Below are positions 15,581 through 47,746 of a DNA stretch of 64,000 bases, piece after piece. Each line of letters opens with the position of its first letter. The first letter of the stretch is position 1. The position numbers and the translations under genes were made by a program. This DNA comes from Deltaproteobacteria bacterium GWA2_38_16 (GTDB lineage Bacteria; Bdellovibrionota; JACOXK01; 2-02-FULL-40-11), in assembly GCA_001797335.1 (NCBI GenBank), contig MGPE01000005.1, positions 153,013-217,012 of the forward strand, given 5' to 3'. The notes beneath the pieces were generated by a model, which searched no databases, was not told the origin of the DNA, and saw nothing but the letters and a program-made list of their open reading frames with translations.

Positions 15581-15592
15581 GGGTGATTGGTA

Positions 15593-16690: not shown

Positions 16691-16726
16691 CAAAGTGGGG
16701 TTTCTCTCGTATATTGGCCCTCTTTT

Positions 16727-18049
16727 ATGAGTAGATTTTGGGCAATTTTTCTTCTCCCTGTTTTTTTATTTTCATTAATAATTTCAACGGGTTGTGTTAA
16801 TCCAGACGAAAAAACAGAAATTAATATTGAAAGCCTCTTGGGAGGGCTGGGACTTACTTCTAGTATATTTGAAGAGGAGCCCCAAACACAATTAGGCACA
16901 TTGGTTTTTTATCGTTCAGAGCGGGTAGTAAAAGAGCTCTGTGAGCGATTTCAATTTAAAGGAACGTCAGACTATGCCATTCAAATTTCAGGAAAACTGG
17001 CCCAAGATATTTTAGATCACCTGGCTTATTTTTCAAAAGGCACTCTTAAAAGTGATGAAGCAGGGGTGGTCTATCTCTTTGGAGAAATTGCTCAGGATTT
17101 GTATCAGGAATTACACTCCATATTTACGATTGATGATATTTTTTATTTTGAAGGAAAAGAAATGGTGGTGGTGAGTGGTGCAGAAGCACTTTCTCTCTTA
17201 GGATTCGCAAAAGAAAAATTAGCAATATATTATGCCCAAACTCCTCAAAAAGTAGAAAGAGTTTTTGTGGCTTCTTATGAAGATGCCAGACAATGGACCA
17301 AAAATTTTCTGTTAGAATTTTATGAAGATTTAAGTATTGGATTTTCAACAAACCCCGTTAAAGTGGTCGATGCTTTGGCCGATGTAGGACATTTTGGATT
17401 GGGAGGTATTGGGCGAGTTATTTTATTAACGGGAGAAATCTGGGTGATTTCTTTTGATTCCGTCAGTAAATTAGGGGCTTTTCTAACGGGGGGAGAGTTG
17501 ATACCCGAAAGTATTCTTATTCGAAAAACAGTAAAAGGAGCTGCAGAAATAGGGTATCTCGTAGCTTCTGATGTTTCCGAGATTTTTAGGATGGCCAGTG
17601 GAGAAAAGCGTCATGGTTTTATAGAAACCGAAAATGGAGGGATATTAACCAATCCCCTCATTACGATTGATATTGCTAGCCAAACGTTGAGAAATGCTAC
17701 GTTTACATCAGATGCTGTAGTGCACTATGCCTCAGAAATGACGATTGGATATATTTCAGATAATTTAGAACTTTTAGGAGAGTTTTTAAATTTAGCTCAT
17801 GAAAATATTGTGGGAGATTTGTTGATTTTTGTAGGGGATAGCTTGTCTCGAGGGATTCATATTACCAGTCTTGGTTTAAGAGCGATTATTCATTTGGGAG
17901 GAAATAGTGTGAGTGCTTTGGTGGGTGCTTTTTCTTTTGAGAAACCTCTGGATGCAAAACTGACTCATTGTAAAAACATTTGGGACGTATTTCGAGATGA
18001 TATGATTGGGTTGTGGCATGAACTCATGAAGTTCTTACGGCTGCGGTGA
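16727..18049 (+). CDS. hypothetical lipoprotein
   Basis: Signal peptide with lipobox-like LIISTGC; 440 aa. Confidence 0.5.
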   Translation: MSRFWAIFLLPVFLFSLIISTGCVNPDEKTEINIESLLGGLGLTSSIFEEEPQTQLGTLVFYRSERVVKELCERFQFKGTSDYAIQISGKLAQDILDHLAYFSKGTLKSDEAGVVYLFGEIAQDLYQELHSIFTIDDIFYFEGKEMVVVSGAEALSLLGFAKEKLAIYYAQTPQKVERVFVASYEDARQWTKNFLLEFYEDLSIGFSTNPVKVVDALADVGHFGLGGIGRVILLTGEIWVISFDSVSKLGAFLTGGELIPESILIRKTVKGAAEIGYLVASDVSEIFRMASGEKRHGFIETENGGILTNPLITIDIASQTLRNATFTSDAVVHYASEMTIGYISDNLELLGEFLNLAHENIVGDLLIFVGDSLSRGIHITSLGLRAIIHLGGNSVSALVGAFSFEKPLDAKLTHCKNIWDVFRDDMIGLWHELMKFLRLR

Positions 18050-20914
18050 AGGGGAAGTTTGGGTTTCTGGAGGAGCTGGAGTGGGAGTTGGAGTAGGTTC
18101 AATGGGAGCTGGGGGTGGAGTGGGAAGTAGTTTTGGTTTGGGTTTTGGTTTTTGAGTTTTAGGCTTAGGAGTAATAATGGGTTTTGGGGGTGTTGAAATG
18201 ACAGACTCTAGGGTAGAGGTTCCGCGCACAATTCCTAGAGTATAATTTTCAAGATTAAAATATTTTCCAGCGACCGTATTAATATCTGCAGAGCTCACGC
18301 TATTTATTTTATCCATAAATTCTTGAACAAAAGAGGTAGGCCTTCCCTCCATTTCATTTTTGGCATAAAGATGGGCCTGAAACTGTCTTGATTCTAACTT
18401 GAGCGATAATTCTCCCAGAAGGATATTTTTGGCGGCTAAAAGTTCTTTGCTTTCAATCGCTTCATCTTTTAATTTTTTATATTCTTCGAGTAAAAAACGG
18501 AGTGCTTTTTTTTCATCTTCGGGAGAAGTGGTGATAAAAGTAGTAAAAACACCGCCATGTTCGTATCCATAAAAATGGCTATTAATCGTATAGGCCAATT
18601 TTTCTTTGGAGCGCAGTCTTAGTCCAAATCGACCCGAGGCTTCGCCCGTTAAATTTTCTAAAACCTGGAGTGTAAACTGATCTGGATGGGAGAGGGGAAT
18701 GGTTTCAAATCCAATTAAAAGGGCGGTTTGCTCTCGGTTTCGGTCTTTAAAATTTTCACTGATGAATGTGGGTAGTTTAATTTCTTCAGTTTCTGAAAAT
18801 TCATGTCTTCGGGGAGGAGTAGTTTTAAAATAATTTTCCATGCTGGTTCTTAAATCTAGGGTATTAAAATCTCCCACAGCGCTGATGACCATATCAGTGC
18901 TATTAATGTGATCTCCCTGCCACTGAATGAGTTTATCTGCAGTAATTTTTGAGATCGAAGAACTAAACCCAAAGGTGGGAAAACTGTAAGGGTGTGCTTT
19001 AAATGCAGCTTCTCTAAAAAGCGCATACGTATAAAGTTTGGGGATATCTTGTTCTTCTTCTTGAAGAGAAATGAGATTGTCTTTTTCTTGACTGAGAATC
19101 GAAGGAGGAAAAGAAGGATGAAGAATAATGTCAGATACAATTTTTAATCCTTCATCAAAATTTTGGGTAGGGATAGTCAGTTGATACCCAAAATAATCAG
19201 GTTCACAAACCGTTGTAACCTGTGCCCCCAATGTATTTAATCCTTCGGCGATGGCTTCTTCAGAACGAGTTGTCGTGCCCCTTAGGCTTGTTTTTAAGAG
19301 AAGTTGTGTAATGCCACTTAAAGATTTTGGTTCATGAACCCGTCCTCCCTTAAAATAAATGTGGAAGACGATAAAAGGAAAACTATGGTCTTCTTTCAAC
19401 AGTAAAATGGCATTATTACTGAGCTGATATTTCTTTAAGGCAGAAAGGGCGTTTGGAGAAGTTTTGGTTTTTTTAAAAAAAGGTAATTCTTGAAAATCGG
19501 CAAAATCGGCAGGTGAAGTTCCTTCTATAGGAGTAGTTTTAAATCCCACAGTTGAGGACGCCAATAATTTTTTTTCTAATTCTCGTTCTGAGTAATAAGG
19601 GACATTTTTTTCTTTAGGCAGATATTCTACAATAGAAAATTTTTCGATTGAAAAATATTTTTTAGCCACTTCTTGGAGAAGTTGAGGAGTTAAAGAGTGA
19701 AGTTTTTCAAGATGATGATTAAATAACGTATAGTCTCCGGTATGCTCAAAAAAAGCCAATGTTTGAGCAAGCTCTAAGGATGTTTCTTGAGTTAAGAAAG
19801 TGTGGGTCTTTATTTGATTTAAAATGATTTTCAGTTCTGCATCAGAAAGAAGTTTATGTTTTAAGCGTTCTATTTCTGAAAATAAAGACACTTCTGTATC
19901 TAATATTTTTTTGATATCAACCCTGGCATTTAAAGAAAAAAAGCCCATGTCTTTATAAAATTCTGTTGAAAGAGAAGCATCGTATACTAAAGCATGCTTT
20001 TTTATTTTTGAATTGAGTAAAAAAGAAAGAAATATCAAGGCATCTTTATCTTCATGTGAAAAAGAGGGAAGGGGAAAGCCCATAAAAATATAGGCATTCC
20101 GAATATCAGATTTGATGCGTTTAAATCGAAAAGCGGTCTGTTCTGGTTCAGGTTCTCCTGGAGTAACCGTTTGGCTTTGTTGAACGGCGGGTGGCTCTTC
20201 TCCGTAATAACGTTTGATAGATTTTAAAGCTTCCTTGGCATTCACATCTCCCACAAGGATGAGAACGGTGTTATCTGTTTTGTAATATCGGCTAAAGAAA
20301 TCTAAAAGATCATTTCGGGTGAGGTGCCTTAAATTTTCTTCGCTTCCCAAATGAGAACGGTGCAGAGGATGTTTTAAAAAAGTGAGTTTCTTAAGAGATT
20401 CTTTTCCCATCTCTTTTGGATTATCTTTGAGTGATTTAAGTTCTTGAATAACAATTTCAGTTTCTTTTGAAAGTTCTGTTGGATCTATCTTCATTTGAAA
20501 AATGGCATCAGACATAAGTTCTATGCCTTGTTCAAAATATCGATTGGGAAGGGTCATTTGATAGCGGGTGTAATCGTTTTGTGTTTGGGTGGTCAGTGTT
20601 GCTCCATAAACATGGGCTTCTTTTAAAATATCATCGGGGCCTGGACGTTTGGTCGTGCCTTTCATGGCCATGTGTTCTAAAAGGTGTGAAACGCCTTCTT
20701 TTTTGTCGGATTCATGAAAATATCCTGCTTGAATATCGGTGACCAAAGAGACAAGAGCAGTAGAGTGATCTTCTTTAATAATGACGGTAAGTCCATTTTT
20801 AAGTTTAGTTTTGACAATGCCCCACGGATCTTGAATAATTTTTTCTTGTTGGCAGGAAGTGTGCAAAGAACCAAAAACAATTAATAAAATCCACGTCAGA
20901 TAACTTTTAAGCAT
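18035..20914 (-). CDS. secreted M16 (pitrilysin/insulinase) family zinc peptidase, two tandem M16 units, Pro/Thr/Lys-rich C-terminal tail
   Basis: Signal peptide; inverted zinc motif HLLEH (GVSHLLEHMAMKGT); 959 aa; C-terminal PKPKTQKPKPKPKLLPTPPPAPIEPTPTPTPAPP. Confidence 0.8.
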   Translation of the reverse strand: MLKSYLTWILLIVFGSLHTSCQQEKIIQDPWGIVKTKLKNGLTVIIKEDHSTALVSLVTDIQAGYFHESDKKEGVSHLLEHMAMKGTTKRPGPDDILKEAHVYGATLTTQTQNDYTRYQMTLPNRYFEQGIELMSDAIFQMKIDPTELSKETEIVIQELKSLKDNPKEMGKESLKKLTFLKHPLHRSHLGSEENLRHLTRNDLLDFFSRYYKTDNTVLILVGDVNAKEALKSIKRYYGEEPPAVQQSQTVTPGEPEPEQTAFRFKRIKSDIRNAYIFMGFPLPSFSHEDKDALIFLSFLLNSKIKKHALVYDASLSTEFYKDMGFFSLNARVDIKKILDTEVSLFSEIERLKHKLLSDAELKIILNQIKTHTFLTQETSLELAQTLAFFEHTGDYTLFNHHLEKLHSLTPQLLQEVAKKYFSIEKFSIVEYLPKEKNVPYYSERELEKKLLASSTVGFKTTPIEGTSPADFADFQELPFFKKTKTSPNALSALKKYQLSNNAILLLKEDHSFPFIVFHIYFKGGRVHEPKSLSGITQLLLKTSLRGTTTRSEEAIAEGLNTLGAQVTTVCEPDYFGYQLTIPTQNFDEGLKIVSDIILHPSFPPSILSQEKDNLISLQEEEQDIPKLYTYALFREAAFKAHPYSFPTFGFSSSISKITADKLIQWQGDHINSTDMVISAVGDFNTLDLRTSMENYFKTTPPRRHEFSETEEIKLPTFISENFKDRNREQTALLIGFETIPLSHPDQFTLQVLENLTGEASGRFGLRLRSKEKLAYTINSHFYGYEHGGVFTTFITTSPEDEKKALRFLLEEYKKLKDEAIESKELLAAKNILLGELSLKLESRQFQAHLYAKNEMEGRPTSFVQEFMDKINSVSSADINTVAGKYFNLENYTLGIVRGTSTLESVISTPPKPIITPKPKTQKPKPKPKLLPTPPPAPIEPTPTPTPAPPETQTSPSPQP

Positions 20915-28637: not shown

Positions 28638-31091
28638 ATGACAGATAAAATAGATAAAAAAACACTCATTGTTCCTCTGCTTCCTCTCAGAGATATTATT
28701 GTTTTTCCTCACATGGTTGTTCCACTCTTTGTGGGAAGAGAAAAATCCATTCAAGCTCTTGAAAATGCTTTGGCTCAGAAAAAAGATATTCTTTTAGTAG
28801 CGCAAAGAAAGGCTAAAACCAATGATCCTACCGAAGAAGAAATTTATAAAGTAGGAACCGCGGGGGCCATTATACAGCTCTTAAGACTTCCCGATGGGAC
28901 TGTGAAAGTACTCATTGAAGGAAGACAGCGGGTGAGAATTCTTCGATATGTAGCACGAGATAAATTTTATGAAGTAGAAGTGGAAGAAATTCATGAGCGC
29001 GAAGAAAAAGGTCCTCAAGTGGAAGCCTTAATCCGAAGTGTAAAAGAAACCTTTGAAAGCTATGTAAAGCTCAATAAAAGAATTCCTCCTGAAATGCTCA
29101 TGACCATTGCTGCTATTGAAGGGGCTTCCAAACTGGCCGATACGGTGGTTTCTCATTTAAATCTTAAAATTGAAGAAAAACAAAATATCTTAGAAGTTGA
29201 AAATCCAAAAGAACGTTTAGAAAAATTATTGTCTTTAATTGAAGGTGAAATTGAGATTCTCCAAATTGAAAAGAAAATTAAAACCCGAGTTAAAAAGCAA
29301 ATGGAGAAGTCTCAGAAGGAATATTATCTCAATGAGCAAATGCATGCGATCCAAAAGGAATTGGGTGAACGAGATGAGTTTAAAGCGGAGATCGCAGAAA
29401 TTGAAAAGGCCTTAAAAGAAAAGAAACTTTCTGAAGAAGCCAGTAAAAAAGTTAAAAAAGAACTCCGAAAATTAAAAATGATGTCCCCCATGTCGGCAGA
29501 AGCAACGGTGGTGAGAAACTATATCGATTGGATTATTACCCTTCCCTGGGGATTTTACACTAAAGACAAAGATGATTTAAAAGCAGCACATCAAATTTTA
29601 GAAGAAGATCATTATGGGTTAAAGAAAATTAAAAATAGAATTTTAGAACATCTGGCCGTTCAATCTTTAGCCAATAAAGTCCAAGGACCGCTTTTATGTT
29701 TGGTGGGGCCACCAGGAGTTGGAAAAACGTCTTTAGCCCGTTCTATTGCTCGGGCTCTAGGGCGAAAATTTGTCAGGGCTTCTTTGGGGGGAGTTCGAGA
29801 TGAAGCCGAAATTCGAGGGCACCGGCGCACCTATATTGGAGCACTCCCTGGAAAGATTATACAATCGATGAAAAAAGCAGGGTCTCAAAATCCTGTATTT
29901 TTGTTAGATGAAATTGATAAAATGGCCATGGATTTTAGGGGAGATCCTGCCGCAGCGCTCTTAGAAGTATTAGACCCAGAACAAAATGTTGCATTTAATG
30001 ATCATTATTTAGAAATAGACTATGATTTATCTAAAATACTCTTCATTGCGACAGCCAATTCTATTCACAATATTCCTCGGCCTCTTTTAGATAGGATGGA
30101 AATGATTTTTGTGGCCGGTTATACTGATGAAGAAAAACTGCATATTGCGCAAAAATTTTTAGTGCCAAAACAAAAAGAACTCAATGGTCTCAAAGAATAT
30201 TCTATTAAGTTTTATGAAAAAGCAGTGCTTACCATTATTCATAAATACACTAAAGAAGCAGGAGTCAGAAATTTAGAAAGAGAAATTGCCAATATTTATC
30301 GAAAAATGGCTAAAAAGATTGTTGAAAAAGGAAAAAATAAAAAGGTGATGTTATCTGTTACTTCTAAAACGGTAGAAGAGCTTTTAGGGACAGAGCGGTA
30401 TCATTCTACTCAAACTGAAAATAAAGATGAGGTGGGGTTAACCAATGGATTGGCGTGGACAGAGATGGGGGGAGAACTTTTAGCGGTAGAGTGTACGATT
30501 ATGCCTGGAAAGGGAGCTGTCACTATTACTGGCCAATTGGGAGAGGTAATGCAAGAGTCTGCCCGGGCGGCTTTGAGTTATGTGCGAAGTCGAGGGGAAT
30601 CTTTAGGATTATCCCCTGATTTTAATCAAAAAGTAGATCTTCATCTTCATGTTCCTGAAGGGGCTATTCCTAAGGATGGTCCTTCGGCAGGGATTACTAT
30701 GGCGACCTGCCTTGTGTCTGCGCTTCTTCGCGTGCCGGTTCGAAAAGAAGTAGCTATGACGGGAGAAATTACACTTCGGGGAAGGGTGCTTCCCATTGGC
30801 GGGCTTAAGGAAAAATTATTAGCAGCTTATCGAGCGGGGATTAAAACCGTATTAGTTCCCAAAGAAAATGAACGGGATTTAAAAGATGTGCCCAAAAAGG
30901 TTTTAAGTTCTCTTAAAATTGTTTTAGTGTCTCATATGGATGAAGTGTTGAAGAAAGCGCTTTTAGTTAAAAATCCAGAACATATTTTCCAAGGCCCTGG
31001 TAATAAAAGTAAAAAAGAATTAAAATCTTCTTTTTATTTTAGGAAAAAGCCTACCTATATGACCCGTGCGCCACTCGTAGGAACTGCCTAG
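28638..31091 (+). CDS. lon: Lon protease
   Basis: 817 aa; Walker [10 protein letters not shown]; catalytic [19 protein letters not shown]. Confidence 0.95.
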
Positions 31092-31460
31092 TCATTCTGA
31101 GCGAAGCGAAGAATCTAATATCTTATTTTCTTTATTTACTTTGATGACTTTTGGAGTAAATGCCTTATATTCTTCCAAAGTTAAATCTGAAAAACTTGCT
31201 ATAATGACAATATCTCCCGGGCTGGCTTTTCGTGCAGCTGCACCATTAATACAGAGAGTGCCACTTAAGGGCGCAGCAGGAATAGCATACGTAGAAAATC
31301 GTTCACCATTGGTGACGTTATAAATTTCAATCCGCTCAAAAGGGACAATATCGGCCATTTCCATAAGATGGCTATCAATGGAAGCAGATCCTTCATAATT
31401 TAAATTACTATCGGTTACAGTCATGCGATGAATCTTAGATTTTAAAATTTGTCGGTACAT
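31092..31460 (-). CDS. panD: aspartate 1-decarboxylase
   Basis: MYRQILKSKIHRMTVTDSNLNYEGSASID (pyruvoyl-forming G-S site); 122 aa. Confidence 0.9.
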   Translation of the reverse strand: MYRQILKSKIHRMTVTDSNLNYEGSASIDSHLMEMADIVPFERIEIYNVTNGERFSTYAIPAAPLSGTLCINGAAARKASPGDIVIIASFSDLTLEEYKAFTPKVIKVNKENKILDSSLRSE

Positions 31461-31546
31461 GAAAAAGAGCTATACCACTCTGTAAAATTCTTGACAAGAG
31501 GAGCCAAAGTCGTGTTAGCTCAAAAAGATCTCAAGGAGAAATTTGA

Positions 31547-31882
31547 ATGAATAAAGCAGATATTGTGATGAAATTGGCAGAAGGTACTGATTTTAGTAAG
31601 GCTCAAGCACAAAAAATGCTGGATAGCTTAAATCAAATTGTTACCAATAGCTTAAAGCGAGGGGAAAAAGTGGTTCTTCCTGGTTTTGGGACTTTTTTAG
31701 TGAGTCAACGTGTCAGTCGGAAAGGAAGAAATCCTCATACCGGAGAAGCCATTCTTCTTAAAGCATCTAAGACACCTCGTTTTCGCGCTGGGAAAAACTT
31801 TAAAAATCTTTTAAATAATCAAAACTATACAATTTTTAGAGAAGACAAGGCCGCAGTGAGCGAAAAATCGAGGCGTACTTAA
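31547..31882 (+). CDS. hup: HU/IHF-family DNA-binding protein
   Basis: GFGTFLVSQRVSRKGRNPHTGEAI arm motif; C-terminal extension. Confidence 0.85.
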   Translation: MNKADIVMKLAEGTDFSKAQAQKMLDSLNQIVTNSLKRGEKVVLPGFGTFLVSQRVSRKGRNPHTGEAILLKASKTPRFRAGKNFKNLLNNQNYTIFREDKAAVSEKSRRT

Positions 31883-31943
31883 TGTACGTTGAGATTTTGA
31901 GCGAGCGAGAACGCCGTATTCTCTAAAAAGGGGATGGTTTTAT

Positions 31944-32019
31944 AGGCGGATAGCTCAGTTGGTAGAGCATCGCCCTTACAAGGCGAGGGTCGCAGGTTCG
32001 AGCCCTGTTCCGCCTACCA
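31944..32019 (+). tRNA. tRNA-Val (anticodon TAC)
   Basis: Cloverleaf folds by eye: acceptor AGGCGGA/TCCGCCT, anticodon loop CTTACAA, T-loop GTTCGAG, 3' CCA encoded. Confidence 0.85.
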
Positions 32020-32145
32020 ACTTCAGATACGATTTGCTCTACATCGTCAGACTCCTTCTTCCTCCCGCAGCGTACATGGAGTACGCCTTGGTCGGGCGTC
32101 GTCGTCTTCCTTGTATAGCTTGCGTCTCTTTGTTGGTTTGTGTTT

Positions 32146-32161
32146 GAGCCCTGTTCCGCCT
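32146..32161 (+). repeat. 16-bp direct repeat of the tRNA-Val 3' end (GAGCCCTGTTCCGCCT), att-like
   Basis: Exact copy of 32000..32015 located 146 bp downstream of the original. Confidence 0.6.
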
Positions 32162-32171
32162 GCCTCTAACT

Positions 32172-33107
32172 TTACTTTCTAACTTCTTTTAATCCTTCGG
32201 AGATAAGTATGCGGGTCATTTCAGATAGTTTGTCTATAACGGAAACTCTACCTTTTTGCATTTCATAAACGAGGGTTTTAAATGCAGGAGAATTTGTGTC
32301 TATTCTTATTGTTTCATTTAAGTCTGCCAGAGCGAGGCGATATCGTAAATAGTGGGTGATCGTAGTAGGAGTCACATGATCCGTGCGCATTAAAATATCT
32401 TCAACTAATCCTCTTGCTATATCGTTAGAGAACCATGTGAGATTTATTTGTTTTTCTCTAAAAATATGCCCAAATTTCTCAATGGCTCTTTGAAGAGAAG
32501 CCGGGACTTCGTCAGGTACTACTTCTAGCTGAAATAACTCTGTGGGTTCGACTGTTTGTACATCTAGACGGTTTCTTACAATAATGACTCTCGCCCCATC
32601 TTTAAGGACATAGGATTCATTAGGTTTTTTTTCTAATGTTCTTGCCAGAGGGCCATCCGAATGAGTATAAAAATGTTCAATAGCTTGATATAAAATAGAA
32701 GAAACCGCTGTGTTGCTTTCCCAAGCAGAAATGGATTCTTTTAAATTAAATGTTACTCGAAATATTTTCTGACCTGCCCTGCCACTGTTTCTAACTTCAC
32801 ATAAAATAGAATTATTTTCATCAGCTATGAGGATATCTGTACCATCTGGTTTTTCAGTAATTTGGATGGCCGATCGTAAGGATGTGCCATGATTAACGGC
32901 AGTAGCTCCAACTCCCCAGGTTTTAAAGGCGCTTAAAGAGTGAAAAAATACTCCCTGAATGGATGTATTATCTGGTGTCCAATCTAATACTATTGAGGCT
33001 GGAATGGCCTGTGTCCAAGCAGTGGTGGTGATAAGTAGGATCAGAGAACTTAAAATAATTTTTCTCATAAAGTGTTCTTTCTTAACAAGGATACTGGGCT
33101 CTGTCAA
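32172..33107 (-). CDS. hypothetical secreted protein
   Basis: Internal Met followed by signal peptide MRKIILSSLILLITTTAWTQA (likely true start); lies between the two tRNA genes. Confidence 0.45.
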   Translation of the reverse strand: MTEPSILVKKEHFMRKIILSSLILLITTTAWTQAIPASIVLDWTPDNTSIQGVFFHSLSAFKTWGVGATAVNHGTSLRSAIQITEKPDGTDILIADENNSILCEVRNSGRAGQKIFRVTFNLKESISAWESNTAVSSILYQAIEHFYTHSDGPLARTLEKKPNESYVLKDGARVIIVRNRLDVQTVEPTELFQLEVVPDEVPASLQRAIEKFGHIFREKQINLTWFSNDIARGLVEDILMRTDHVTPTTITHYLRYRLALADLNETIRIDTNSPAFKTLVYEMQKGRVSVIDKLSEMTRILISEGLKEVRK

Positions 33108-33197
33108 TCGGGGGGGCTTATAAAAATATATTGAAGCCTCTTTAAATTCTGTGTATCAATAACTTTTTAGGCATGTGACTATAGGTATGATTTTTTG

Positions 33198-33217
33198 TGG
33201 GACCGTAGTTCAGCTGG
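33198..33217 (+). repeat. 5' fragment of tRNA-Asp (acceptor and D-arm only), duplicated 120 bp upstream of the intact gene
   Basis: GGGACCGTAGTTCAGCTGG identical to the first 19-20 nt of tRNA-Asp; downstream sequence does not complete a cloverleaf. Confidence 0.6.
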
Positions 33218-33317
33218 CCAAAGGTCACAAGCGTGTGACCATTCAAATCTGTAATAACCAGCTGGAAACGAAGTTTGTAGATATTTGGAAATTTAGTAAG
33301 TTAGGTATAAGTTTTTT

Positions 33318-33394
33318 GGGACCGTAGTTCAGCTGGTTAGAACGCCTGCCTGTCACGCAGGAGGTCGCGAGTTCGAGTCTCGTCGGTCCCGCCA
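33318..33394 (+). tRNA. tRNA-Asp (anticodon GTC)
   Basis: Acceptor GGGACCG/CGGTCCC, anticodon loop CTGTCAC, T-loop TTCGAGT, 3' CCA encoded. Confidence 0.85.
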
Positions 33395-33415
33395 GATAAT
33401 TTCATTCAAAAAAAA

Positions 33416-33444
33416 CGAGCTCTAGATTTCAGAGCTCGTTTTTT
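33416..33444 (+). terminator. Rho-independent terminator after tRNA-Asp
   Basis: CGAGCTCT-AGATTTC-AGAGCTCG hairpin followed by TTTTTT. Confidence 0.6.
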
Positions 33445-33538
33445 CGTGGTCAGACTTGTATACTTCGAATGTAAATGAGGTTTCGACTTTTCTTTTTTAA
33501 TACGGCCCTACTCTACGCGCTTTTTGTTTACAGGGAAT

Positions 33539-33577
33539 ATGATTTGTGTCATATTTTCAGCACATGATTTATGTCAT
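33539..33577 (+). promoter_or_regulatory. two FNR/CRP-family-like palindromic boxes upstream of nirK
   Basis: ATGATTTGTGTCAT (33539..33552) and ATGATTTATGTCAT (33564..33577), each ATGA-N6-TCAT, 25 bp apart, 25-60 bp upstream of the nirK ATG. Confidence 0.4.
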
Positions 33578-33601
33578 TTTTCTGCCATCAAGGAGGAAAT
33601 A

Positions 33602-35008
33602 ATGAAAAAAATATTTTTGATCATTATCGGTATCGGATGTTTTGGAAATCTTTTATCGTGTAAGTCATCTTTGCCTATTGAAAAAGCTGTTCTAACTTTT
33701 GCTCCAGAAGTGCCGCCGGTGATTACGCGGACATCTCCAGCAAAAGTGATTGTTGATCTAGAGGTTCAAGAAGTGGTCAATCAACTGGCCGATGGTGTTG
33801 AATATACGTTTTGGACATTTGGGGGGAAAGTTCCTGGGAAATTTATTCGAGTTCGAGAAGGAGATATCGTAGAGTTTCATTTGGCCAACCATCCTGCCAA
33901 TAAGCTTCCTCATAATATTGATCTTCATGCAGTGACAGGGCCTGGTGGGGGCGCCACCAGTTCCTTTACAGCGCCTGGACATAAATCCCAATTTACATTT
34001 ACAGCGTTAAACGCGGGTCTCTATGTATATCACTGTGCCACGGCTCCTGTAGGGATGCATGTGGCTAATGGCATGTATGGGCTTATTTATGTGCAACCCA
34101 AAAAAGCGCTGCCTAAGGTGGATCGTGAATATTATGTTATGCAAGGAGATTTTTATACCAAGGGTGTTTTTAGTGAAAAAGGGCTTCAGCCCTTTTCCAT
34201 GGAAAAGGCTATCGATGAAAAACCAAGCTATGTGGTGTTTAATGGGGCGGTGAATTCATTGGTGGGGGATAATGCACTGAAAGCCAAAGTAGGAGAAACC
34301 ATTCGTTTATTTGTGGGAAATGGGGGGCCGAATTTGGTTTCGTCATTTCATGTTATTGGAGAAATTTTTGATAAAGTGTATCAAGAAGGAGGGACTTCCA
34401 CTGTTCAGGAAAATGTTCAAACTACTTTAGTTCCCGCTGGAGGATCAGCCATTGTTGAATTTAGGATGGATGTTCCTGGAACTTTTATTTTAGTTGATCA
34501 CAGTATCTTTAGAGCATTTAATAAAGGAGCTTTGGGAATGCTTAAAGCGGAAGGGCCAGAAAATAAAGTCATTTATTCTGGAAAAGAGGTGGATGAAAAT
34601 TATATTGAGAGCCAAGCACATCCCCAAGCAGGGTTAAAATCAGAACCGTCCCCTTTAAAAGCCGGGCGGAGTGGGGCTACTATTTTTGAAAATGTATGCG
34701 CCATGTGTCATCAACAAGAAGGACAAGGCCTTTCTGGCGTATTTCCTCCTTTGGCAAAATCAGACTATCTTTCTCATTTAGCCGTTAGAGATCGAGAGAA
34801 ATTAGTATCTATTATTCTAAAAGGGTTATCGGGAAAAATTACCGTGAATGGAAAAGAGTATAATAATGTGATGACGCCTGTTTCAGGACTTTCTGATGAA
34901 GAATTAGTAACCATCTTAAATTATATTATCAGTTCCTGGGGAAATTCTGGAAAACCATTTACTTTAGAGGAAGTGAAAAAAGCGAAAGAAAAAATTGAAT
35001 CGAGATGA
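33602..35008 (+). CDS. nirK: copper-containing nitrite reductase with C-terminal cytochrome c domain
   Basis: Cupredoxin ligand motifs (HNIDLHA; [16 protein letters not shown]); C-terminal heme motif CAMCH; likely start at ATG 33602 with AGGAGG RBS (ORF track starts 33524). Confidence 0.85.
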
Positions 35009-37435: not shown

Positions 37436-40400
37436 TTGTGTAAATCTGCCACTTTAAGGCTTAAAAAATATGGAGGAAATATGACATATATCAGCCGAAG
37501 AAAGTTTTTAAAAGGTTTGGGGGCAGTAGGGACGTTATTAACCTCAGAAACTGTCTTTGGATCTCCTCTTCGATATTTTAAGCCTACCCATGTAGAAAAT
37601 CCCTTAGCATTTTATCCCAACCGGGATTGGGAAAAAGTATATCGAAATATTTTTAAACCTGATTCCACGTTTGTATTTTTGTGTGCTCCCAATGATACCC
37701 ATAACTGTCTTTTAAAAGCGTATGTCAAAAATAATGTGGCGGTTCGAATAGGTCCTACTTATGGATATGGAAAAGCACAAGATCTCTATGGGAATCAATC
37801 GTCTCATCGGTGGGATCCCAGGCTCTGTCAAAAAGGATTGGGATTAGTACGTAGGGTCTATGGGGATCGTCGTTTAAAATCCTCAATGATTCGACAAGGA
37901 TTTAAACAATGGGTAGAGGCTGGATTTCCCAGAGATCCCAAAACTGGAAAGCCGGATTTAAAATATTTTAATCGGGGACGAGATAAGTGGCTCAGAATTT
38001 CTTGGGATGAAGCATTTCAATTATCTGCCAAAGCTTTTTATAATATTGCACAAACCTATTCAGGCAAAGAAGGAGAAAAACGTTTAAAACTTCAAGGTTA
38101 TGATTCTGCGATGATTGAAGCGTTAGAAGGAGCAGGAACACAAACAATTAAAATCAGAGGGGGAATGGCATTTTTAGGATCTACACGAATTTTTGGAATG
38201 TATCGATTTGCCAATATGCTTGCGCTTTTAGATAGCAAAATTCGAGGAGTTGGGCCAGATCACGCCGTAGGAGCCAGAGGGTGGGATAGTTATAGTTGGC
38301 ATACAGATCTTCCACCAGGGCATCCCATGGTGACGGGTACTCAAACCAATGATTTTGATTTATTTGCCGTAGAACATTCAAAGCTTGCTATTGCCTGGGG
38401 GATGAATTGGATTACGACAAAAATGCCAGATTCCCATTGGTTGACGGAAGCCAGGCTCAAGGGAACTAAAACCGTGTCCATCACGGTTGAATACAGTGCA
38501 ACGGCTTCTAAAACCGATGACGTGATTGTTATTCGTCCAGGAACAGATCCAGCCTTTGCATTGGGATTGGCCCAAGTGATTATATCTGAAAAACTCTATG
38601 ATTTGGAGTTTGTATCCAAAAATACGGATCTTCCTTTTCTTATTCGATTAGATACCTTGGAGCCTCTTCGTCCCCAAGATATTATTCCGGGATATGTAGA
38701 GCCTCCTTTAAAAAATATTGTCTTTCTTAAAAAAGGAGAAAAACCCCCGGCAACCTCTACCCATCGCATTCAATATGCCACGGAAGAAATGAAGGATTCT
38801 TTTAAACCGTTTGTGATTGTTGATCAAAAAACCAAAAAATTAACACCGGTGACGAGAGACTCGTTCAGATCGGCAGATTTGTTTTCCAGTCGAACGGTGA
38901 AACTTTTAAATGGGAAGGAAATAAAAGTACAAACCGTGTTTGGGTTAATGAGAGACTATGTAAATCAAAATTTTACGCCTAAACAAACCGAACTTATTAC
39001 TGGTGCTCCTGAAAAAGCAATTATCTTATTAGCCAAACAAATTGCGGCTAATCCAGAAAAAACACTTTTTGTGACGGGTATGGGTCCAAACCAATTTTTT
39101 AATTCTGATTTAAAAGATCGGGCCATCTTTTTTGTGGCAGCCTTAACGCGAAATATTGGATTTCCAGGGGGTAATGTAGGAAGTTATGCTGGAAATTATA
39201 GAGCAGCATTGATTGGGGGAGAGCCCGTATTTGCTGCCGAAGATCCCTTTCATGTGCAACTCGATCCCAAAGGTAAGGTCATTGTTAAAAAATATACGCA
39301 TTATGAATCACTTCATTACTTTAATTATGGTGAGAGGCCGCTTAGGGGAGGGAAAACATTATTTACAGGGAAAAGTCATCTTCCAACTCCTACCAAAGCC
39401 ATGTGGCTCAATAATTCTAACTCTGTCATCGGAAATATTAAGTGGCATTTTGATGTGGTGAATAACACGCTTCCAAAGCTAGAGTTTATTGCATTTGCAG
39501 ATTGGTGGTGGACGGGTTCTTGTGAGTATGCTGATATTGTTTTTGGCGTCGACAGTTGGGCGGAGTTTAAAGTGCCTGATATGTGTGCTTCCTGTACCAA
39601 TCCTTTCCTTCATGTTTATCCCAGAACTCCTCTTCCCAGAATTTTTGATACGAAATCTGATATCGAAGTGATTGCAGGAGTATCAAAAGCGTTAGCCGAA
39701 GTAACCAATGATGCTCGAATGGTTGACATGTGGAAATTTGTTCATGAAGGGAATGTGCAAACATATCTTCAACGGATTATGGATCACTCTTTTACGCTCA
39801 AAGGGTATGATATTGATGATCTAGAGAAAAAAGCCCAAGAAGGAATTCCAACGCTCATGAATAATCGAACCTATCCTAGAATCTCTTCTTTTGAGCAGGC
39901 CACAGAAAAAGAACTTTGGTTTACGAAATCAGGTCGATTGGAATTTTATCGTCCTGAAAAAGAATTTATTGAGCATGGTGAAAATATGGTGGTGTATAGA
40001 GAACCTGTTGATTCAACGCCCTATGAACCCAATGTCATTGTAGCACATCCTCATGTGGCCATTCGTCCTAAAGGGCCCGAAGCACATGGGATGCAGTCGA
40101 GTGATCTTTCGTGTGAAAGTCGCCAAGTGCGAAATGTGATCAAAACGCCAGAAGAAGTAGTCAAAACAGAGCATCCTCTGCGTTCCAAAAAATTTACTCA
40201 CATTTATCATACGCCCAAATATCGACATGGAGCACACACGACTCCTGTTGATACTGATTTTACGGGAGTATGGTTTGGCCCTTTTGGTGATATTTATCGG
40301 CACGACAAACGTCAAGCCTCCGTGACCGAAGGATATGTAGATATAAATCCTTTAGATGCCAAAGAACTGGGGATTGAAGATGGGGATTATGTGCATATAG

Positions 40401-40924
40401 ATGCTGATCCCCAAGATCGTCCTTATAGAGGATGGAAAAAAGGGACTGAGTCTTATCATGTGGGGAGACTCCTTCTCAGGGCTCGTTATTATCCAGGGAC
40501 TCCCAGGGGAGTAGCTCGGACTTGGCACAATATGTATGGAGCTACTTTTGGAAGTGTGAAAGCTCATGAAACCCGGCCCGATGGACTCGCTAAAAATCCA
40601 GAGACAAATTACCAATCCATGTATCGCTATGGCAGTCATCAAAGTGCCACCCGGGCATGGCTACGGCCAACACTTATGACAGAAACATTGGTGAGAAAAG
40701 AAATGTTTGGAAATCAAATGGGCAAAGGATTTGCTGCAGATATTCATTGTCCCGTCGGAGCGCCTCGGGAAGCGTTTGTTAAAATTTCTAAAGCTGAGAA
40801 CGGGGGATTGGGAGGAAAAGGAAAGTGGGGGCCGGCACAGCTTGGATTTCGTCCCACCTATGAAAATGTAGCGATGAAGGAATATCTTAAAGGAAAATTT
40901 ATGAAACGAAAGAAGGAGATGTAA
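37436..40924 (+). CDS. Tat-exported molybdopterin oxidoreductase alpha subunit, type II DMSO reductase family (nitrite oxidoreductase NxrA-like / periplasmic NarG-like)
   Basis: Twin-arginine signal SRRKFLKG (probable start at Met16, about 37481); FS0 motif C-x3-D-x3-C...C followed by YVKNN (cf. NarG H-x3-C-x3-C..YVKNG); about 1150 aa. Confidence 0.8.
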
Positions 40925-40927
40925 AGC

Positions 40928-42058
40928 ATGGCAACAGTAAAAAATTGGCAACTGGATCGCCAAATGGATTATCCCTATGAAGAGCACCGACCTAAAAAAC
41001 AATGGGCCATTGTTTTTGATTTAAATAAATGCATTGGATGTCAAACCTGTTCCTTGGCCTGTAAAACCACTTGGACCAGTGGCAAAGGCCAAGAATATAT
41101 GTTTTGGAATAATGTGGAAACAAAACCTTGGGGCAGCTATCCCCTGGCGTGGGATGTCCGAGTACTTGAAAAATTGGGATATCAACACTGGGATAAAAAT
41201 AAACCCTATTCCGGAAAAACCGTTTTTGAAGCTGCTGATCCAGCAGAAAAAGCGGTTCATTTTAATCCTCAAGATGAAGATTGGATGTATCCAAACCGAG
41301 GAGAAGATGATTGTACAGGAAATGTCTCGGGTGGAAAATATTTGACATTACCCCACGACAATTGGTTTTTTTATCTTCCCAGAACCTGTGCACATTGTAC
41401 CTATCCTGCCTGTTTAGCAGCCTGCCCCAGAAAAGCGATTTATAAACGAGAAGAAGATGGTATTGTTCTGATCGATCAATCACGATGCAAAGGATACCAA
41501 GAATGTGTCAGGGCCTGTCCCTATAAAAAGTCTATGTATAATCCCTATACCCGAGTGAGTGAAAAATGTGTGGGGTGTTATCCGGCGGTAGAAGAGGGAA
41601 AGCAACCCATGTGTGTTCAAAATTGCATTGGGAAAATTCGTATTATGGGATTTATTAATCCTCCCTGGAATGCCAGAGAAGATAATCCTGTTGATTATCT
41701 GGTTCACAAAAAAGAATTAGCACTCCCGTATTATCCTCAGTTGGGACTTGAGCCGAATATTTATTATGTTCCTCCCATTCATGCCAATCGGGAGTATTTA
41801 ATTCAGATGTTTGGCCCAAAAGTAGAGGAGGTCATTGAAAATTATAAAAAAATTAAAAATGATCCTATTACCCAGGGACTTTTAGTGCTGATGGGATCTA
41901 CGGATAATATTATTCATCGTTTTAAAGTTTCTGAGGGATCAGCATATGCTTTTGATGAAAAAGGGGATCAAATTGTGAGAGTTCCAGTCACAGAGCCTTT
42001 ATTTATTCGAACCCCTTGGGATGAAAAACTGGGCGTTATTCGAAATAATACGCCCTAA
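40928..42058 (+). CDS. iron-sulfur beta subunit of the type II DMSOR-family enzyme (NxrB/NarH-like)
   Basis: Four ferredoxin-type Cys clusters (CIGCQTCSLAC; CAHCTYPACLAACP; CKGYQECVRACP; CVGCY...C); no signal peptide; immediately follows the alpha gene. Confidence 0.8.
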   Translation: MATVKNWQLDRQMDYPYEEHRPKKQWAIVFDLNKCIGCQTCSLACKTTWTSGKGQEYMFWNNVETKPWGSYPLAWDVRVLEKLGYQHWDKNKPYSGKTVFEAADPAEKAVHFNPQDEDWMYPNRGEDDCTGNVSGGKYLTLPHDNWFFYLPRTCAHCTYPACLAACPRKAIYKREEDGIVLIDQSRCKGYQECVRACPYKKSMYNPYTRVSEKCVGCYPAVEEGKQPMCVQNCIGKIRIMGFINPPWNAREDNPVDYLVHKKELALPYYPQLGLEPNIYYVPPIHANREYLIQMFGPKVEEVIENYKKIKNDPITQGLLVLMGSTDNIIHRFKVSEGSAYAFDEKGDQIVRVPVTEPLFIRTPWDEKLGVIRNNTP

Positions 42059-42962
42059 GAAAGAAGGTGTGAGGGGAATGATGAAGAAAATTTATGCTTT
42101 AATGGTTGTAAGTTATCTTTTATGGGGCCAGGGACTTTGGGCCGAAGGACTTATTGCAAAATATGTTAAAGAGGATCTCTCTAAACTAAATCTTGAAGCA
42201 CTGTTTTGGAAAGAGGTTACTCCAGAGACCATTCAGCTGATAGCTCAGCCCATGGTGGCCCCACGTCCTCAAAAAACATTGACGGAAAAACTTTGGGTAC
42301 AAGTGGTTCATAATGGAGAGTGGATGGCGTTTCGATTTAAATGGAAAGACAAAGAGAAGAGCGAAGCAGGACCTTTGGGTAAATTTTCGGATGCAGTGGC
42401 CATTCAATTTCCAGTGAAAGAAAAAGAAGTGCCCCCGATTTTTATGGGAGCCAAGGATAGCCCCGTTCATATTTTGCATTGGAGAGCACAGTATCAAAAA
42501 GACAAAGAAAAAGGATTCCAAACGATGAAAGATATTTATCCCAATATGAATATGGATATGTATCCTTTAGAATTTGCCAATCAATATTCTCATGATGAGA
42601 TGTTGAAAAAAATCACTGAGGAACAAAGAGAAGTGTTTGTGTCTGGAAAATCTGCTGGAAACCCTCAATCATTTCAAAAAATAAAAGGGGTGGATGAGAT
42701 GATGGCCGAAGGTTTTGGTTCCAGTTCTGTCATTGAAAATACGAGAGCAGAAGCTCAGGGGATATGGCAAAAAAAAGGAAAAGAAGGAGAATGGGTAGTG
42801 CAAATTTCTCGGCCCTTAGCTTTAGAAGGGGGATCTATCTTGAAAGCAGGGCAAAAAAGTTTTATGGCCTTTGCTGTGTGGCAGGGCGGAGAAGGGGAAG
42901 TGGGATGTCGAAAATCTGTGACGATGACCTGGGTACCCTTAATAATTGAGGATAAAAAATGA
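42021..42962 (+). CDS. periplasmic gamma subunit (heme b, EbdC/NxrC-like)
   Basis: Sec signal MMKKIYALMVVSYLLWGQGLWAEG (probable start at internal Met about 42078); position and size fit a gamma subunit. Confidence 0.6.
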   Translation: MKNWALFEIIRPKKEGVRGMMKKIYALMVVSYLLWGQGLWAEGLIAKYVKEDLSKLNLEALFWKEVTPETIQLIAQPMVAPRPQKTLTEKLWVQVVHNGEWMAFRFKWKDKEKSEAGPLGKFSDAVAIQFPVKEKEVPPIFMGAKDSPVHILHWRAQYQKDKEKGFQTMKDIYPNMNMDMYPLEFANQYSHDEMLKKITEEQREVFVSGKSAGNPQSFQKIKGVDEMMAEGFGSSSVIENTRAEAQGIWQKKGKEGEWVVQISRPLALEGGSILKAGQKSFMAFAVWQGGEGEVGCRKSVTMTWVPLIIEDKK

Positions 42963-43624
42963 TGCCTAAACCTACGGATTTTATCGTTGCTTCTTTTTTG
43001 ACCGCATATCCAGATAACTATTTTTGCGATAGCTTAAAGGACATCTTAAATTGTCAAAAACCCAAAGGTATTGATTCTTTCTATTTGGAGCTGAAATCTT
43101 ATATAGAAACACCTCAAAAACTAAATAATTTGCGTTCTGATTATATTGATATTTTTGATCATGGAAAAGAAATCAACTCTCCGTATGAAACGTCTTATGG
43201 GCCTTATAAGGGGATGAATAAGACCATCGATCTTTCAGATTTGATGGGATTTTACAAAGCGTTTGGATTTGAATTGGGAGTGGATGATAAAAGGCGAGAT
43301 ATGGCAGATCATGTTTCTGTTGAGCTTGAATTTTATGCGCTGTTGCTCATGAAAGAAGCCTATTTGAAAAAACACAATGATAAAGAAGGAACTGAAATTG
43401 TTTTAGATGCGTGTAAGAAATTTTTAAAAGATCATTTAGGAAGATTTATTTCAGCTATTGGCAATAGGCCCGCTGTTTTACAACATTCTTTTTATTCGAA
43501 AGTATTTGAGTGGAGTGCTGTTCTTGTTGCCGAAGAATGCAAAAGATTAAATGTTACGCCTACGCCTTTGTCTTACGATTCTCTGATATCCGAATCTGAA
43601 GATTTTAACTGTCGTTTTAAATAA
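42959..43624 (+). CDS. TorD/NarJ-family redox enzyme maturation chaperone
   Basis: 221-aa cytoplasmic protein, fourth gene of the operon; DHVSVELEFYALL resembles TorD/NarJ-family helices. Confidence 0.55.
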   Translation: MMPKPTDFIVASFLTAYPDNYFCDSLKDILNCQKPKGIDSFYLELKSYIETPQKLNNLRSDYIDIFDHGKEINSPYETSYGPYKGMNKTIDLSDLMGFYKAFGFELGVDDKRRDMADHVSVELEFYALLLMKEAYLKKHNDKEGTEIVLDACKKFLKDHLGRFISAIGNRPAVLQHSFYSKVFEWSAVLVAEECKRLNVTPTPLSYDSLISESEDFNCRFK

Positions 43625-46770: not shown

Positions 46771-47325
46771 ATGATTATGAGGACATTTTACGTCAGTGTT
46801 CTTGAGTTAGCACTTTTGGAGAAGCTTATCGTTTTTGGGCGCTCTTATACACATGAGTTGTCTAAAAATCTAACTATTTCGCCTGCCCATGTGAATCGAC
46901 TGTGCCATGCGCTGAGAAAGCGGCAGATATTGAATGTTTCTTCTCAGGAGAATCGAAAATTTTTTGAGTTGAATTATCAGTGTTTGTTAACAAGAGAATT
47001 GCTACGGTTTATAACCGTAATTAAAATAAAAAATTCTAAATATTTTCGAAAATTAGGAGAAATATGCCCTTTTGGAGTTTTTGGAAGTTTTTCGGAAGGG
47101 ATGCAAACAAAAGAAAGCGATTTGGATCTATGGGTATTTTCTGACCGTTCTTTTGAAAAAAAAATCCGTTTAATTATAAATGATATTGAAAAAGAATGGG
47201 AACATATCATTAATATTGTTTATCTGGATAAAAATAAGCTTGAAATAATGAAAAAAAATGATCCAGAATTTTATTATCGCCTTCGATCCCAATCGCTTAC
47301 AGAAAGGGGAGATATTTTTGAATAA
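46771..47325 (+). CDS. minimal nucleotidyltransferase (MNT) with N-terminal wHTH; MntA-like antitoxin
   Basis: GVFGSFSEGMQTKESDLDLWVF (GS...DxD NTase motif); followed by an overlapping HEPN gene. Confidence 0.7.
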   Translation: MIMRTFYVSVLELALLEKLIVFGRSYTHELSKNLTISPAHVNRLCHALRKRQILNVSSQENRKFFELNYQCLLTRELLRFITVIKIKNSKYFRKLGEICPFGVFGSFSEGMQTKESDLDLWVFSDRSFEKKIRLIINDIEKEWEHIINIVYLDKNKLEIMKKNDPEFYYRLRSQSLTERGDIFE

Positions 47326-47746
47326 ACTTAAAGATTGTTTTGAAAAGAAGTTTTTAGTCAGAACGCGCCCTGAACCTGAATTAGCTAAAAAATCTTTAAA
47401 ACGTGGTTTAGCAACGATTGAGGATGTACCCAAAGCTTTAAAAGCAGATTTAGATGAGCTGGCTGAACAAAGGCTGTATCAAAGTGTGTTCCATGGAGTA
47501 AAAGCATTACTCTATAAAGATGGCATTAAAGAAAGATCACATATTTGCGTCAGTTTATATTTTAAAGAAACGTATCAGAAGTTTTTTTCTAAAGATCTTT
47601 TAACCTTATTGGATCGATTAAGGGATGTTCGCCATGAATCTCAATATGGTCTTGATGCCGTTGCCATGAATTCAGAACAAATTCAAAATTGGTTAGCAGA
47701 GGCAGAACAACTTTTAAAAGTAATTTCTCAGCTTTTAAAATCGTAA
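47319..47746 (+). CDS. HEPN-domain protein, HepT-like toxin (probable TTG start)
   Basis: R-x4-HxxQY motif RDVRHESQYG; ORF track opens at 47258 but overlaps the MNT gene, so the start is inferred. Confidence 0.6.

Follow-up and report, generated by a model that had tools for sequence, protein, structure and literature searches.

The window analyzed here, a 64,000-nucleotide (nt) stretch of Deltaproteobacteria bacterium GWA2_38_16 (assembly GCA_001797335.1, contig MGPE01000005.1, positions 153,013 to 217,012), contains only two tRNA genes according to ARAGORN and Rfam, tRNA-Val(tac) and tRNA-Asp(gtc). These genes, which normally lie next to each other, are separated here by a 1.3-kb insertion, and each is accompanied by a partial copy of its own end lying within the intervening DNA. 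An earlier note on this DNA had regarded the partial copies as scars of integrase-mediated insertion or excision, and the region as a possible boundary of past island traffic. We instead favor, with a confidence a little short of even, the explanation that local duplication of the tRNA edges, and not an integrase island, gave rise to the partial copies. The feature is of an ordinary kind, in an unusual arrangement.

The split of the tRNA pair became apparent from a survey of 160 lon loci taken from genomes and metagenomes of several phyla, 109 of which carry tRNA-Val(tac) after lon. tRNA-Asp(gtc) comes next after tRNA-Val in 93 of these 109 lon-linked loci, the two being separated by a median of 11 nt and by 641 nt at most; the spacer in the window measures 1,298 nt. 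Scans of genome and metagenome contigs for Lon reached at most 67% identity, and the closer relatives were obtained through a protein database and contig look-ups. The closest relative with a contig reaching this site, L175 (GCA_016193105.1, Lon 81% identical), has the order lon, panD, hupB, tRNA-Val, an 8-nt spacer (TTAAAAGA) and tRNA-Asp. Its tRNA-Asp is identical to that of the window at 77 of 77 positions, and its tRNA-Val differs by one compensatory pair (4:69). The adjacency across the lon-linked loci, together with the 8-nt spacer in L175, indicates that the long spacer of the window is derived. By sequence comparison, the DNA between tRNA-Val and tRNA-Asp is a lineage-specific insertion, and the empty site in L175 marks all 1.3 kb as inserted, not the fragments as its bounds. 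The window is also covered by the Joint Genome Institute (JGI) contig Ga0209211_10000227, and two further samples hold the same strain with an identical Val-Asp region.

The synteny comparison proposed in the earlier note also revealed that this locus has been rearranged in a different way in each relative examined. In L179 (Lon 72% identical), an unrelated 6.1-kb insert lies between tRNA-Val and tRNA-Asp and hupB has been lost. In L177 (73%), which lacks hupB, tRNA-Val stands in inverted orientation with respect to lon and panD, and L181 (76% by BLASTP) has no tRNA gene at this position. L004, a metagenome-assembled genome (MAG) of a more distant member of the Oligoflexia, carries an independent 641-nt Val-Asp insert with a minus-strand open reading frame (ORF). 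We found no tRNA fragments at the junctions of the L179 and L004 inserts. The DNA 3′ of tRNA-Asp in L175 and L179 is unrelated to that of the window, an observation that carries little weight either way at such distance. What is seen here, in a groundwater clade, is the breaking apart of a tRNA pair, within the order lon-hupB-Val-Asp, that ranks among the most conserved. The L179 insert (13167-19224) encodes an 82-amino-acid acidic secreted ORF, ino1, an RCC1-repeat protein and an AAA_14/DUF4143 ATPase; a Fic gene comes directly after tRNA-Asp. The L004 insert (14194-14834) holds a minus-strand ORF of 147 amino acids and a GATATC-rich palindromic run directly after tRNA-Val, with IS3-like ORFs just past tRNA-Asp.

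Both tRNA genes of the window are intact. tRNA-Val occupies 31944-32019 on the plus strand, with an encoded CCA (ARAGORN; Rfam tRNA, 72.2 bits), and tRNA-Asp occupies 33318-33394 on the same strand (ARAGORN; Rfam). The 16-mer GAGCCCTGTTCCGCCT from the 3′ end of tRNA-Val occurs in the window only at 32000-32015 and 32146-32161, as the earlier note had recorded, and two matches were obtained in none of 100 shuffles. The 19-mer GGGACCGTAGTTCAGCTGG, with which tRNA-Asp begins, likewise has just two occurrences, at 33199-33217 and 33318-33336, and no shuffle of 100 yielded such a pair; the second repeat thus also stands, at 19 nt and with an offset of 119 nt upstream, the Val repeat being offset by 146 nt downstream. 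Neither of them is a chance match. Local alignment extended both repeats beyond what had been noticed. On the Val side, 31996-32023 aligns with 32142-32172 (both plus strand) at 28 of 31 positions with one 3-nt gap, covering the T-loop, the 3′ strand of the acceptor stem, CCA and 5 nt of the trailer. On the Asp side, 33182-33217 aligns with 33302-33336 (both plus strand) at 33 of 36 positions, covering a 17-nt leader (TAGGTAT and a T-run, resembling a -10 element) and positions 1-19 of the tRNA. Since both repeats overrun the tRNA boundary, a stretch of chromosome has been copied, not the tRNA sequence alone. The second Val-edge copy is partial and non-functional, with C56 changed to T, the discriminator A to G and CCA to CCT, in addition to the 3-nt insertion; the first two are changes that would disable a tRNA. 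On the Asp side the upstream copy is the partial one and the downstream copy belongs to the intact gene.

Past both repeat blocks, the similarity stops abruptly. The tRNA part of the Asp fragment consists of 19 bases without a mismatch followed by 58 positions without detectable similarity, and the Val fragment shows the same sharp loss beyond its block. These boundaries bear on the explanation that tRNA-Val and tRNA-Asp were each duplicated whole and that the partial copies are what mutation has left of decaying tandem genes. Four other loci do contain whole duplicates of tRNA-Asp or of the Val-Asp pair, the periods being 103-262 nt there and 119 and 146 nt in the window, and one tRNA-Pro copy, in L054, is in the middle of such decay. 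However, gradual decay would be expected to leave residual similarity or a cloverleaf beyond the fragments, and we observed neither. The partial copies were called neither as tRNA nor as pseudo-tRNA by ARAGORN or Rfam (E up to 10 on the Val side and up to 1 on the Asp side), and the space in which the body of a Val copy would lie is occupied by a rod-shaped hairpin, H2, described below. The sharp boundaries largely exclude this explanation, and we consider it very unlikely.

What each tRNA gene and its own fragment enclose is small: 118 nt on the Val side and 83 nt on the Asp side, neither of which has coding capacity. The single gene of the insert, an orphan ORF, sits between the two fragments and outside both tRNA-fragment intervals. 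Both enclosed intervals hold an inverted copy of nearby sequence, namely the apex of a hairpin termed H1 on the Val side and the D-loop of tRNA-Asp on the Asp side. The Asp-side interval contains a 7-bp hairpin, GGTCACA-AGCG-TGTGACC (33223-33240), and then the inverted D-loop copy, the two together spanning 33223-33269 on the plus strand. The D-loop copy (TAACCAGCTG) lies at 33255-33264, as a 10-nt inverted match to 33330-33339, and its pairing stretch reaches 33269; it is predicted to be able to pair with the D-arm part of the upstream Asp-edge copy. The predicted fold of 33199-33272 has an energy of -23.2 kcal/mol (z -2.5). As a separate candidate, we considered that the 118- and 83-nt intervals might be elements repeated within the window, and rejected it, as only short chance-level matches were obtained (E of at least 0.095).

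The enclosed lengths are central to the comparison with integrase islands. According to the Islander rules, an island lies between a tRNA gene and the displaced end fragment of that gene, with an integrase inside (PMC4383910). Its length is 2-200 kb, the minimum being 2 kb, and a 3′ fragment has to lie downstream and a 5′ fragment upstream of the gene (PMC4383910). Both fragments of the window have the orientation and configuration allowed for island scars, and L175, with tRNA-Val, 8 nt and tRNA-Asp, provides the unoccupied site in a relative. Neither interval between tRNA and fragment contains an integrase, the 118 and 83 nt being non-coding, and the repeat offsets of 146 and 119 nt are far from the length of an island. 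The fragments therefore share with the signature of tyrosine integrases at tRNA genes (Reiter 1989; Williams 2002; Islander, PMC4383910) the same-orientation end fragments, the Val block running from T-loop to 3′ end and the empty site in a relative. They differ from it in that the enclosed DNA is 118 and 83 nt instead of at least 2 kb, lacks an integrase, has native composition and leaves the only gene outside.

In the integrase-based explanation, elements carrying tyrosine recombinases would have entered tRNA-Val at its 3′ end and tRNA-Asp at its 5′ end, perhaps as tandem arrays, and nearly all of their DNA would later have been deleted. The remaining attachment (att) sites, attL and attR, would now stand 118 and 83 nt apart, and the orphan gene would be a remainder of the cargo that has lost its own outer att copy; an attP-like copy would be expected to carry GTTCGAGCCCTGTTCCGCCTACCAACTT or TAGGTATAAGTTTTTTGGGACCGTAGTTCAGCTGG. 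The allowed orientation and configuration of both fragments, the sharp end of similarity at the fragment edges and the Val identity block, which extends from the T-loop to the 3′ end and beyond as in the commonest class of att sites, all agree with this proposal. The Val-Asp interval also behaves as a hot spot, given the 6.1-kb insert with the DUF4143 ATPase and Fic genes in L179 and the 641-nt insert with IS3 in L004. Those two inserts, however, are not accompanied by tRNA fragments. Among ORFs of at least 130 amino acids in the 64 kb, a Pfam search detected no integrase, recombinase or transposase family, and a scan of ORFs of at least 80 amino acids between 24 and 49 kb, made for the integrase remnants that the earlier note had suggested looking for, detected none. 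G+C content (GC), GC skew, tetranucleotide distance, GC at third codon positions (GC3) and codon likelihood revealed no discontinuity, so the composition check, too, speaks for DNA of native character. The 118-nt interval, moreover, is a recognizable member of a chromosomal hairpin family and not random remnant DNA. About 4% of mapped islands have fragments at the 5′ end, such as that of tRNA-Asp (159, as compared with 3,760 at the 3′ end; PMC4383910), and at least three events plus deletions would be required. We regard an integrase origin as possible but unlikely.

Of the earlier proposal of integrase scars, the real fragments and their allowed configuration stood, while the integrase itself and intervals of island size did not. 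The suggestion of island traffic was borne out in so far as the insertion is lineage-specific and the site is a hot spot, but the fragments do not enclose the gene. The note had named as contrary to its proposal the finding of the same partial repeats in distant relatives with no compositional discontinuity; the composition is indeed continuous, but the partial repeats are not conserved in the relatives. Partial tRNA copies are routinely taken as island boundaries, and both fragments here pass the tests of orientation and configuration. Annotation pipelines and readers should therefore inspect what a tRNA gene and its own fragment actually enclose.

Short-range copies of tRNA edges are not confined to this window. 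Among 452 tRNA genes in 131 loci, searched for end copies no more than 400 nt away, 8 genes in 7 loci bore such fragments, namely both tRNA genes of the window and 6 elsewhere. The configuration is the allowed one in all 8 and the wrong one in none. L103 carries three tandem 121-nt units, each with the leader and 5′ end of tRNA-Leu; L126 carries 120-nt units, each with the 3′ end and trailer of tRNA-Lys; and L048 has a tandem tRNA-Pro array. These three are clear tandem arrays without an integrase, and in L054 a tandem tRNA-Pro copy is part-way through decay. In L006, a stretch of about 45 nt from the 3′ end and trailer of tRNA-Lys recurs 319 nt downstream, and two rod-like hairpins are enclosed between the copies, one of them a weak match to the hairpin family discussed below (15.3 bits). 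A parallel to the Asp side is found in the same clade: at the tRNA-Val of L177 (12362-12436, minus strand), about 45 nt, made up of a promoter-like leader and the initial 16 nt of the tRNA, recur 130 nt upstream (12551-12566) and are followed by a GC-rich hairpin and an inverted D-arm copy, which is the same layout as that of the window. Pairing of the partial Val copy with the inverted D-arm copy in L177 was not supported by the predicted fold (z -0.3). The occurrence of fragment-bearing tRNA loci without an integrase indicates that short-range edge repeats arise next to tRNA genes without integrases. In these gammaproteobacterial MAGs, the tandem units of about 120 nt lie at 6100-6426 in L103 and 5651-6010 in L126, and the repeat of L006 lies at 14920-15415, where one of the enclosed hairpins starts with an inverted copy of the T-arm.

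A precedent may be the region distal to tyrT of Escherichia coli, which reportedly consists of 178-bp units that all include the final 19 nt of tRNA-Tyr, and is said to be the source of the rtT RNA (Egan & Landy 1978; Rossi 1981; Bösl & Kersten 1991). As on the Val side of the window, a fragment of the tRNA 3′ end would lie 100-200 nt downstream in the same orientation, without a recombinase, and L126, L048 and L103 contain the same kind of unit. The window agrees with this type of repeat in the nearby same-orientation fragments, in the extension of the units into leader or trailer and in the lack of a recombinase. It does not show two or more units that are similar along their whole length: there is one extra unit per side, the Val unit is an opposite-strand hairpin and the Asp unit is a repeat of the 5′ leader. 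The link between rtT and tyrT is mentioned in bioRxiv 10.1101/2024.07.17.603846.

The Val-side interval belongs to a family of rod-shaped hairpins. Its type member, H1, is a 121-nt rod at 31821-31941 on the plus strand, ending 2 nt before tRNA-Val, with a predicted folding energy of -44.6 kcal/mol on the plus strand and -28.0 kcal/mol on the opposite strand. Its core is 83-84% identical to L179 12989-13066, which likewise lies directly 5′ of tRNA-Val, although the Lon proteins are only 72% identical; L175 has no H1. H2, at 32023-32131 on the minus strand, lies 3′ of the orphan gene, faces tRNA-Val and fills the 118-nt interval between the two Val-edge copies. It folds better on the minus strand (-38.5 kcal/mol, z -4.8) than on the plus strand (-29.4 kcal/mol, z -0.8). 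Its apical 21 nt match the reverse complement of H1 31871-31891 at 18 of 21 positions, a value reached by 1 of 300 shuffles, and it displays the motifs ACAAGG, 21 nt, GGCGTAC-N5-GTACG, 23 nt and ACGATGTA at the spacing of the family. The covariance-model score of H2 is weak (12.7 bits, E about 1), and its closest relative is the rod after panD in L179, termed H1b, with a core identity of 65%. We also considered that H2 could have originated from H1 by recent inverted copying, in one template-switch event that also gave rise to the Val repeat. This candidate was rejected, since the cores of H1 and H2 are 50% identical as against about 90% between the Val-edge copies, and since H2 is nearer to H1b of L179.

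The members of the family are roughly 110-125 nt long and share the motifs ACAAGG, 21 nt, GGCGTAC-N5-GTACG, about 22 nt and ACGNNGTA, or, in RNA letters, ACAAGG, 21 nt, GGCGUAC-N5-GUACG, about 22 nt and ACGNNGUA. A covariance model was built from three members, among them a rod after lptG in L087 (4723-4845, minus strand). It retrieved further copies after panD in L179 (12414-12536, minus strand) and 2 nt from the 3′ end of tRNA-Arg in L006 (2596-2717, plus strand), as well as two in each of two IMG/VR contigs; family members were located at 748-871 and 5425-5552 of L182 and at 4247-4369 of L183. The L179 member next to tRNA-Val, H1a, extends over 12967-13088 on the plus strand. Compensatory changes were found at 19 of 42 pairs with three sequences and at 28 of 38 pairs with six, and in 6 of 6 members the predicted fold of the family strand is more stable, by 9-23 kcal/mol, than that of the opposite one. 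The apex and two internal-loop motifs are conserved, and the base of the stem varies by compensatory change. The rods often stand a few nt from a tRNA gene or just past the 3′ end of a gene. The Asp-side interval was not matched by the family covariance model. Rfam has no family for the rods: over 30000-35000 it reported only tRNA at E up to 1, and over 31790-32180 at E up to 10 the one further match was at chance level (15 bits, E 2.7) and overlay the tRNA.

The rods resemble the intergenic palindromic families such as REP/BIME, Correia and hairpins like miniature inverted-repeat transposable elements in being hairpins of about 110-125 nt that are intergenic and dispersed over loci and genomes, often standing after the 3′ end of a gene or between convergent genes. 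They differ in that the apex is kept and the base of the stem varies, in their strong fold on one strand, and in that several of them abut tRNA genes; we saw no transposase associated with the H rods. The sequence of a gene followed by a long imperfect hairpin in the same orientation, as in the orphan gene with H2, hupB with H1 and panD with H1b, recalls integron attC sites. These are said to have a conserved base (the R and L boxes) and a variable center, the reverse of the rods, and neither an integron integrase nor a cassette array is present.

The properties of this family raise the explanation that H rods are mobile elements that insert at tRNA edges and gene 3′ ends and duplicate 25-45 nt of target, so that the Val repeat would have come from H2. 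In three genomes, rods of the family stand no more than a few nt from tRNA genes: H1 precedes the 5′ end of tRNA-Val by 2 nt in the window as in L179, and the L006 rod is 2 nt from the 3′ end of tRNA-Arg. The repeat of about 45 nt at tRNA-Lys of L006 encloses rod-like hairpins, the family is dispersed (two copies in each of the two IMG/VR contigs and one after lptG in L087), and H2 is closer to H1b of L179, at another locus, than to the neighboring H1. Nevertheless, no flanking direct repeats were found at H1, at H1a and H1b of L179 or at the tRNA-Arg rod of L006. It is the apex that is conserved and not the termini, the reverse of transposon-derived elements, and H1 and H1a look like orthologs inherited in place. 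No transposase is known to yield target duplications of 25-45 nt, which further counts against this explanation, and the Asp-side interval falls outside the family. It is rather improbable, in our judgment, that the rods constitute an undescribed family of structured RNA or DNA that settles at tRNA edges and gene 3′ ends and duplicates the tRNA end on arrival. If true, the partial copy on the Val side would be the footprint of a new kind of small element instead of an integrase. The hairpin family is the part of this case that could lead somewhere new. In L087, the 3′ end of lptG and the rod that follows it lie between two direct copies of a 12-nt sequence, GGCTACCCAATC (4686-4951, minus strand); this repeat lies partly within the lptG coding sequence and could be due to chance or to a junction duplication.

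Local duplication of the tRNA edges, the explanation that we prefer, would proceed as follows. A Val/Asp pair, normally adjacent and presumably co-transcribed, was split in this lineage by 1.3 kb of DNA of native composition, which carries the minus-strand orphan gene with the H2 rod at its 3′ side. The tRNA edges and their adjoining non-tRNA bases would have been duplicated directly, enclosing a small hairpin-bearing segment on each side. We infer that these duplications were local events independent of a recombinase, such as slipped or unequal exchange or template switching at hairpin-forming sequence, and that they took place when the hairpin-bearing segments came to lie against the tRNA edges. 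The copies may have persisted since the outer copies keep both tRNA genes whole. We likewise infer a role in transcription, in which the duplicated Asp leader may provide the separated tRNA-Asp, cut off from the promoter of tRNA-Val, with a promoter region of its own.

Several observations weigh against this explanation. There is one extra unit per side only and no tandem array. The similarity vanishes exactly at the fragment ends, which would also be in keeping with site-specific crossover. With its extent from T-loop to 3′ end, the Val block corresponds to the classic identity block of integrases, and both fragments are att-like. Two similar duplications at both edges of one insertion are a coincidence that the model does not predict. 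A sigma-70 consensus scan called no promoter in any of the leader copies. Finally, we found no genomes with a Lon identity between 81% and about 100%, so that the order of events is not observable.

The only ORF between the two partial copies, in accordance with the single secreted-protein gene of the earlier note, is the orphan gene at 32172-33068 on the minus strand. It encodes 298 amino acids from an ATG, or 311 from an upstream TTG at 33107, and its product is probably secreted, judging by eye from a signal-peptide-like N-terminus. The gene belongs to no Pfam family, its sole PHROG match is marginal (E 0.04), and a word-index search with the protein matched only the protein itself. A full HMMER search retrieved 5 distant homologs with 27-38% identity. 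The closest of them, P0002, is on a contig that holds that gene alone, and the neighbors of the other 4 are visible, on contigs with a GC of 37-40% in three cases and 55% in the fourth. These neighborhoods, which include acs and ddl, tpiA and secG with a tRNA-Leu gene, and an OmpA-domain gene, are ordinary chromosomal contexts, and none of the 4 is located between tRNA-Val and tRNA-Asp. For the ORF, z is -0.9 in GC3 and -1.84 in codon choice; the tetranucleotide z of the insert is 0.16. A single-sequence AlphaFold2 model of the protein was unusable (predicted local distance difference test score, 42).

Downstream of tRNA-Asp, a nitrogen-redox locus begins immediately, as had been described: a nirK-like copper oxidase gene fused to cytochrome c (33602-35008, plus strand; Pfam Cu-oxidase_3, Cu-oxidase_2 and Cytochrom_C), with a codon-usage z of +0.23, is the first of the cluster. 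The cluster continues with an SCO1/FGE protein, a TauE-like permease and a molybdoenzyme of the Nar/Nxr type exported by twin-arginine translocation (TAT), with iron-sulfur (FeS), EB_dh-type and NarJ-like partners, and then with molybdenum cofactor genes and a Crp/Fnr regulator. Codon usage in these genes is typical to above average, except for the TauE-like permease (z -2.9). The idea that the locus is bounded by the tRNA genes could not be sustained. A second copy of the tRNA-Asp 3′ end, sought downstream as a far att site, was not found in the window, so that nothing ties the nitrogen locus to an att site at tRNA-Asp, and there is no compositional break; the suggestion that such a site bounds the cluster of nirK and Nxr-like genes is thereby removed. 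Between tRNA-Asp and the nirK-like gene stands a perfect 14-bp hairpin (33410-33444, without assigned strand; an inverted repeat of 100% complementarity) bordered on its two sides by an A-run and a T-run, respectively, the shape of a two-way terminator.

The genes 5′ of tRNA-Val are tig, clpP, clpX, lon, panD on the minus strand, and hupB. The hupB gene (31547-31882, plus strand), encoding an HU-type DNA-binding protein (Pfam Bac_DNA_binding, E 6.5e-30), loses its homology to that of L175 at window position 31812. The product has a C-terminal extension of about 17 amino acids relative to L175 (region 31813-31882), which is encoded within the H1 hairpin, and the stop codon sits in the apical loop of H1, while the hupB stop codon of L175 overlaps the first bases of tRNA-Val.

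The region 37436-43624 of the redox cluster encodes the TAT-exported enzyme, of the type II dimethyl sulfoxide (DMSO)-reductase family, with its FeS, EB_dh-type heme and NarJ-like partners. The enzyme comprises 1,162 amino acids from a TTG start, or 1,147 in the JGI gene call. Beside the nirK-cytochrome c gene, this is a periplasmic Nar/Nxr-like layout in a 'deltaproteobacterial' groundwater lineage of 38% GC. Near the beginning of the window, an ORF at 1718-2389 on the minus strand weakly matches Pfam Phage_30_3 (35.9 bits against a cut-off of 36) and adjoins genes for complex I and a 2-oxoacid:ferredoxin oxidoreductase. Towards the distal end of the redox cluster, at 46771-47746, a nucleotidyltransferase gene and a HEPN gene stand side by side as a pair that resembles a toxin-antitoxin system.

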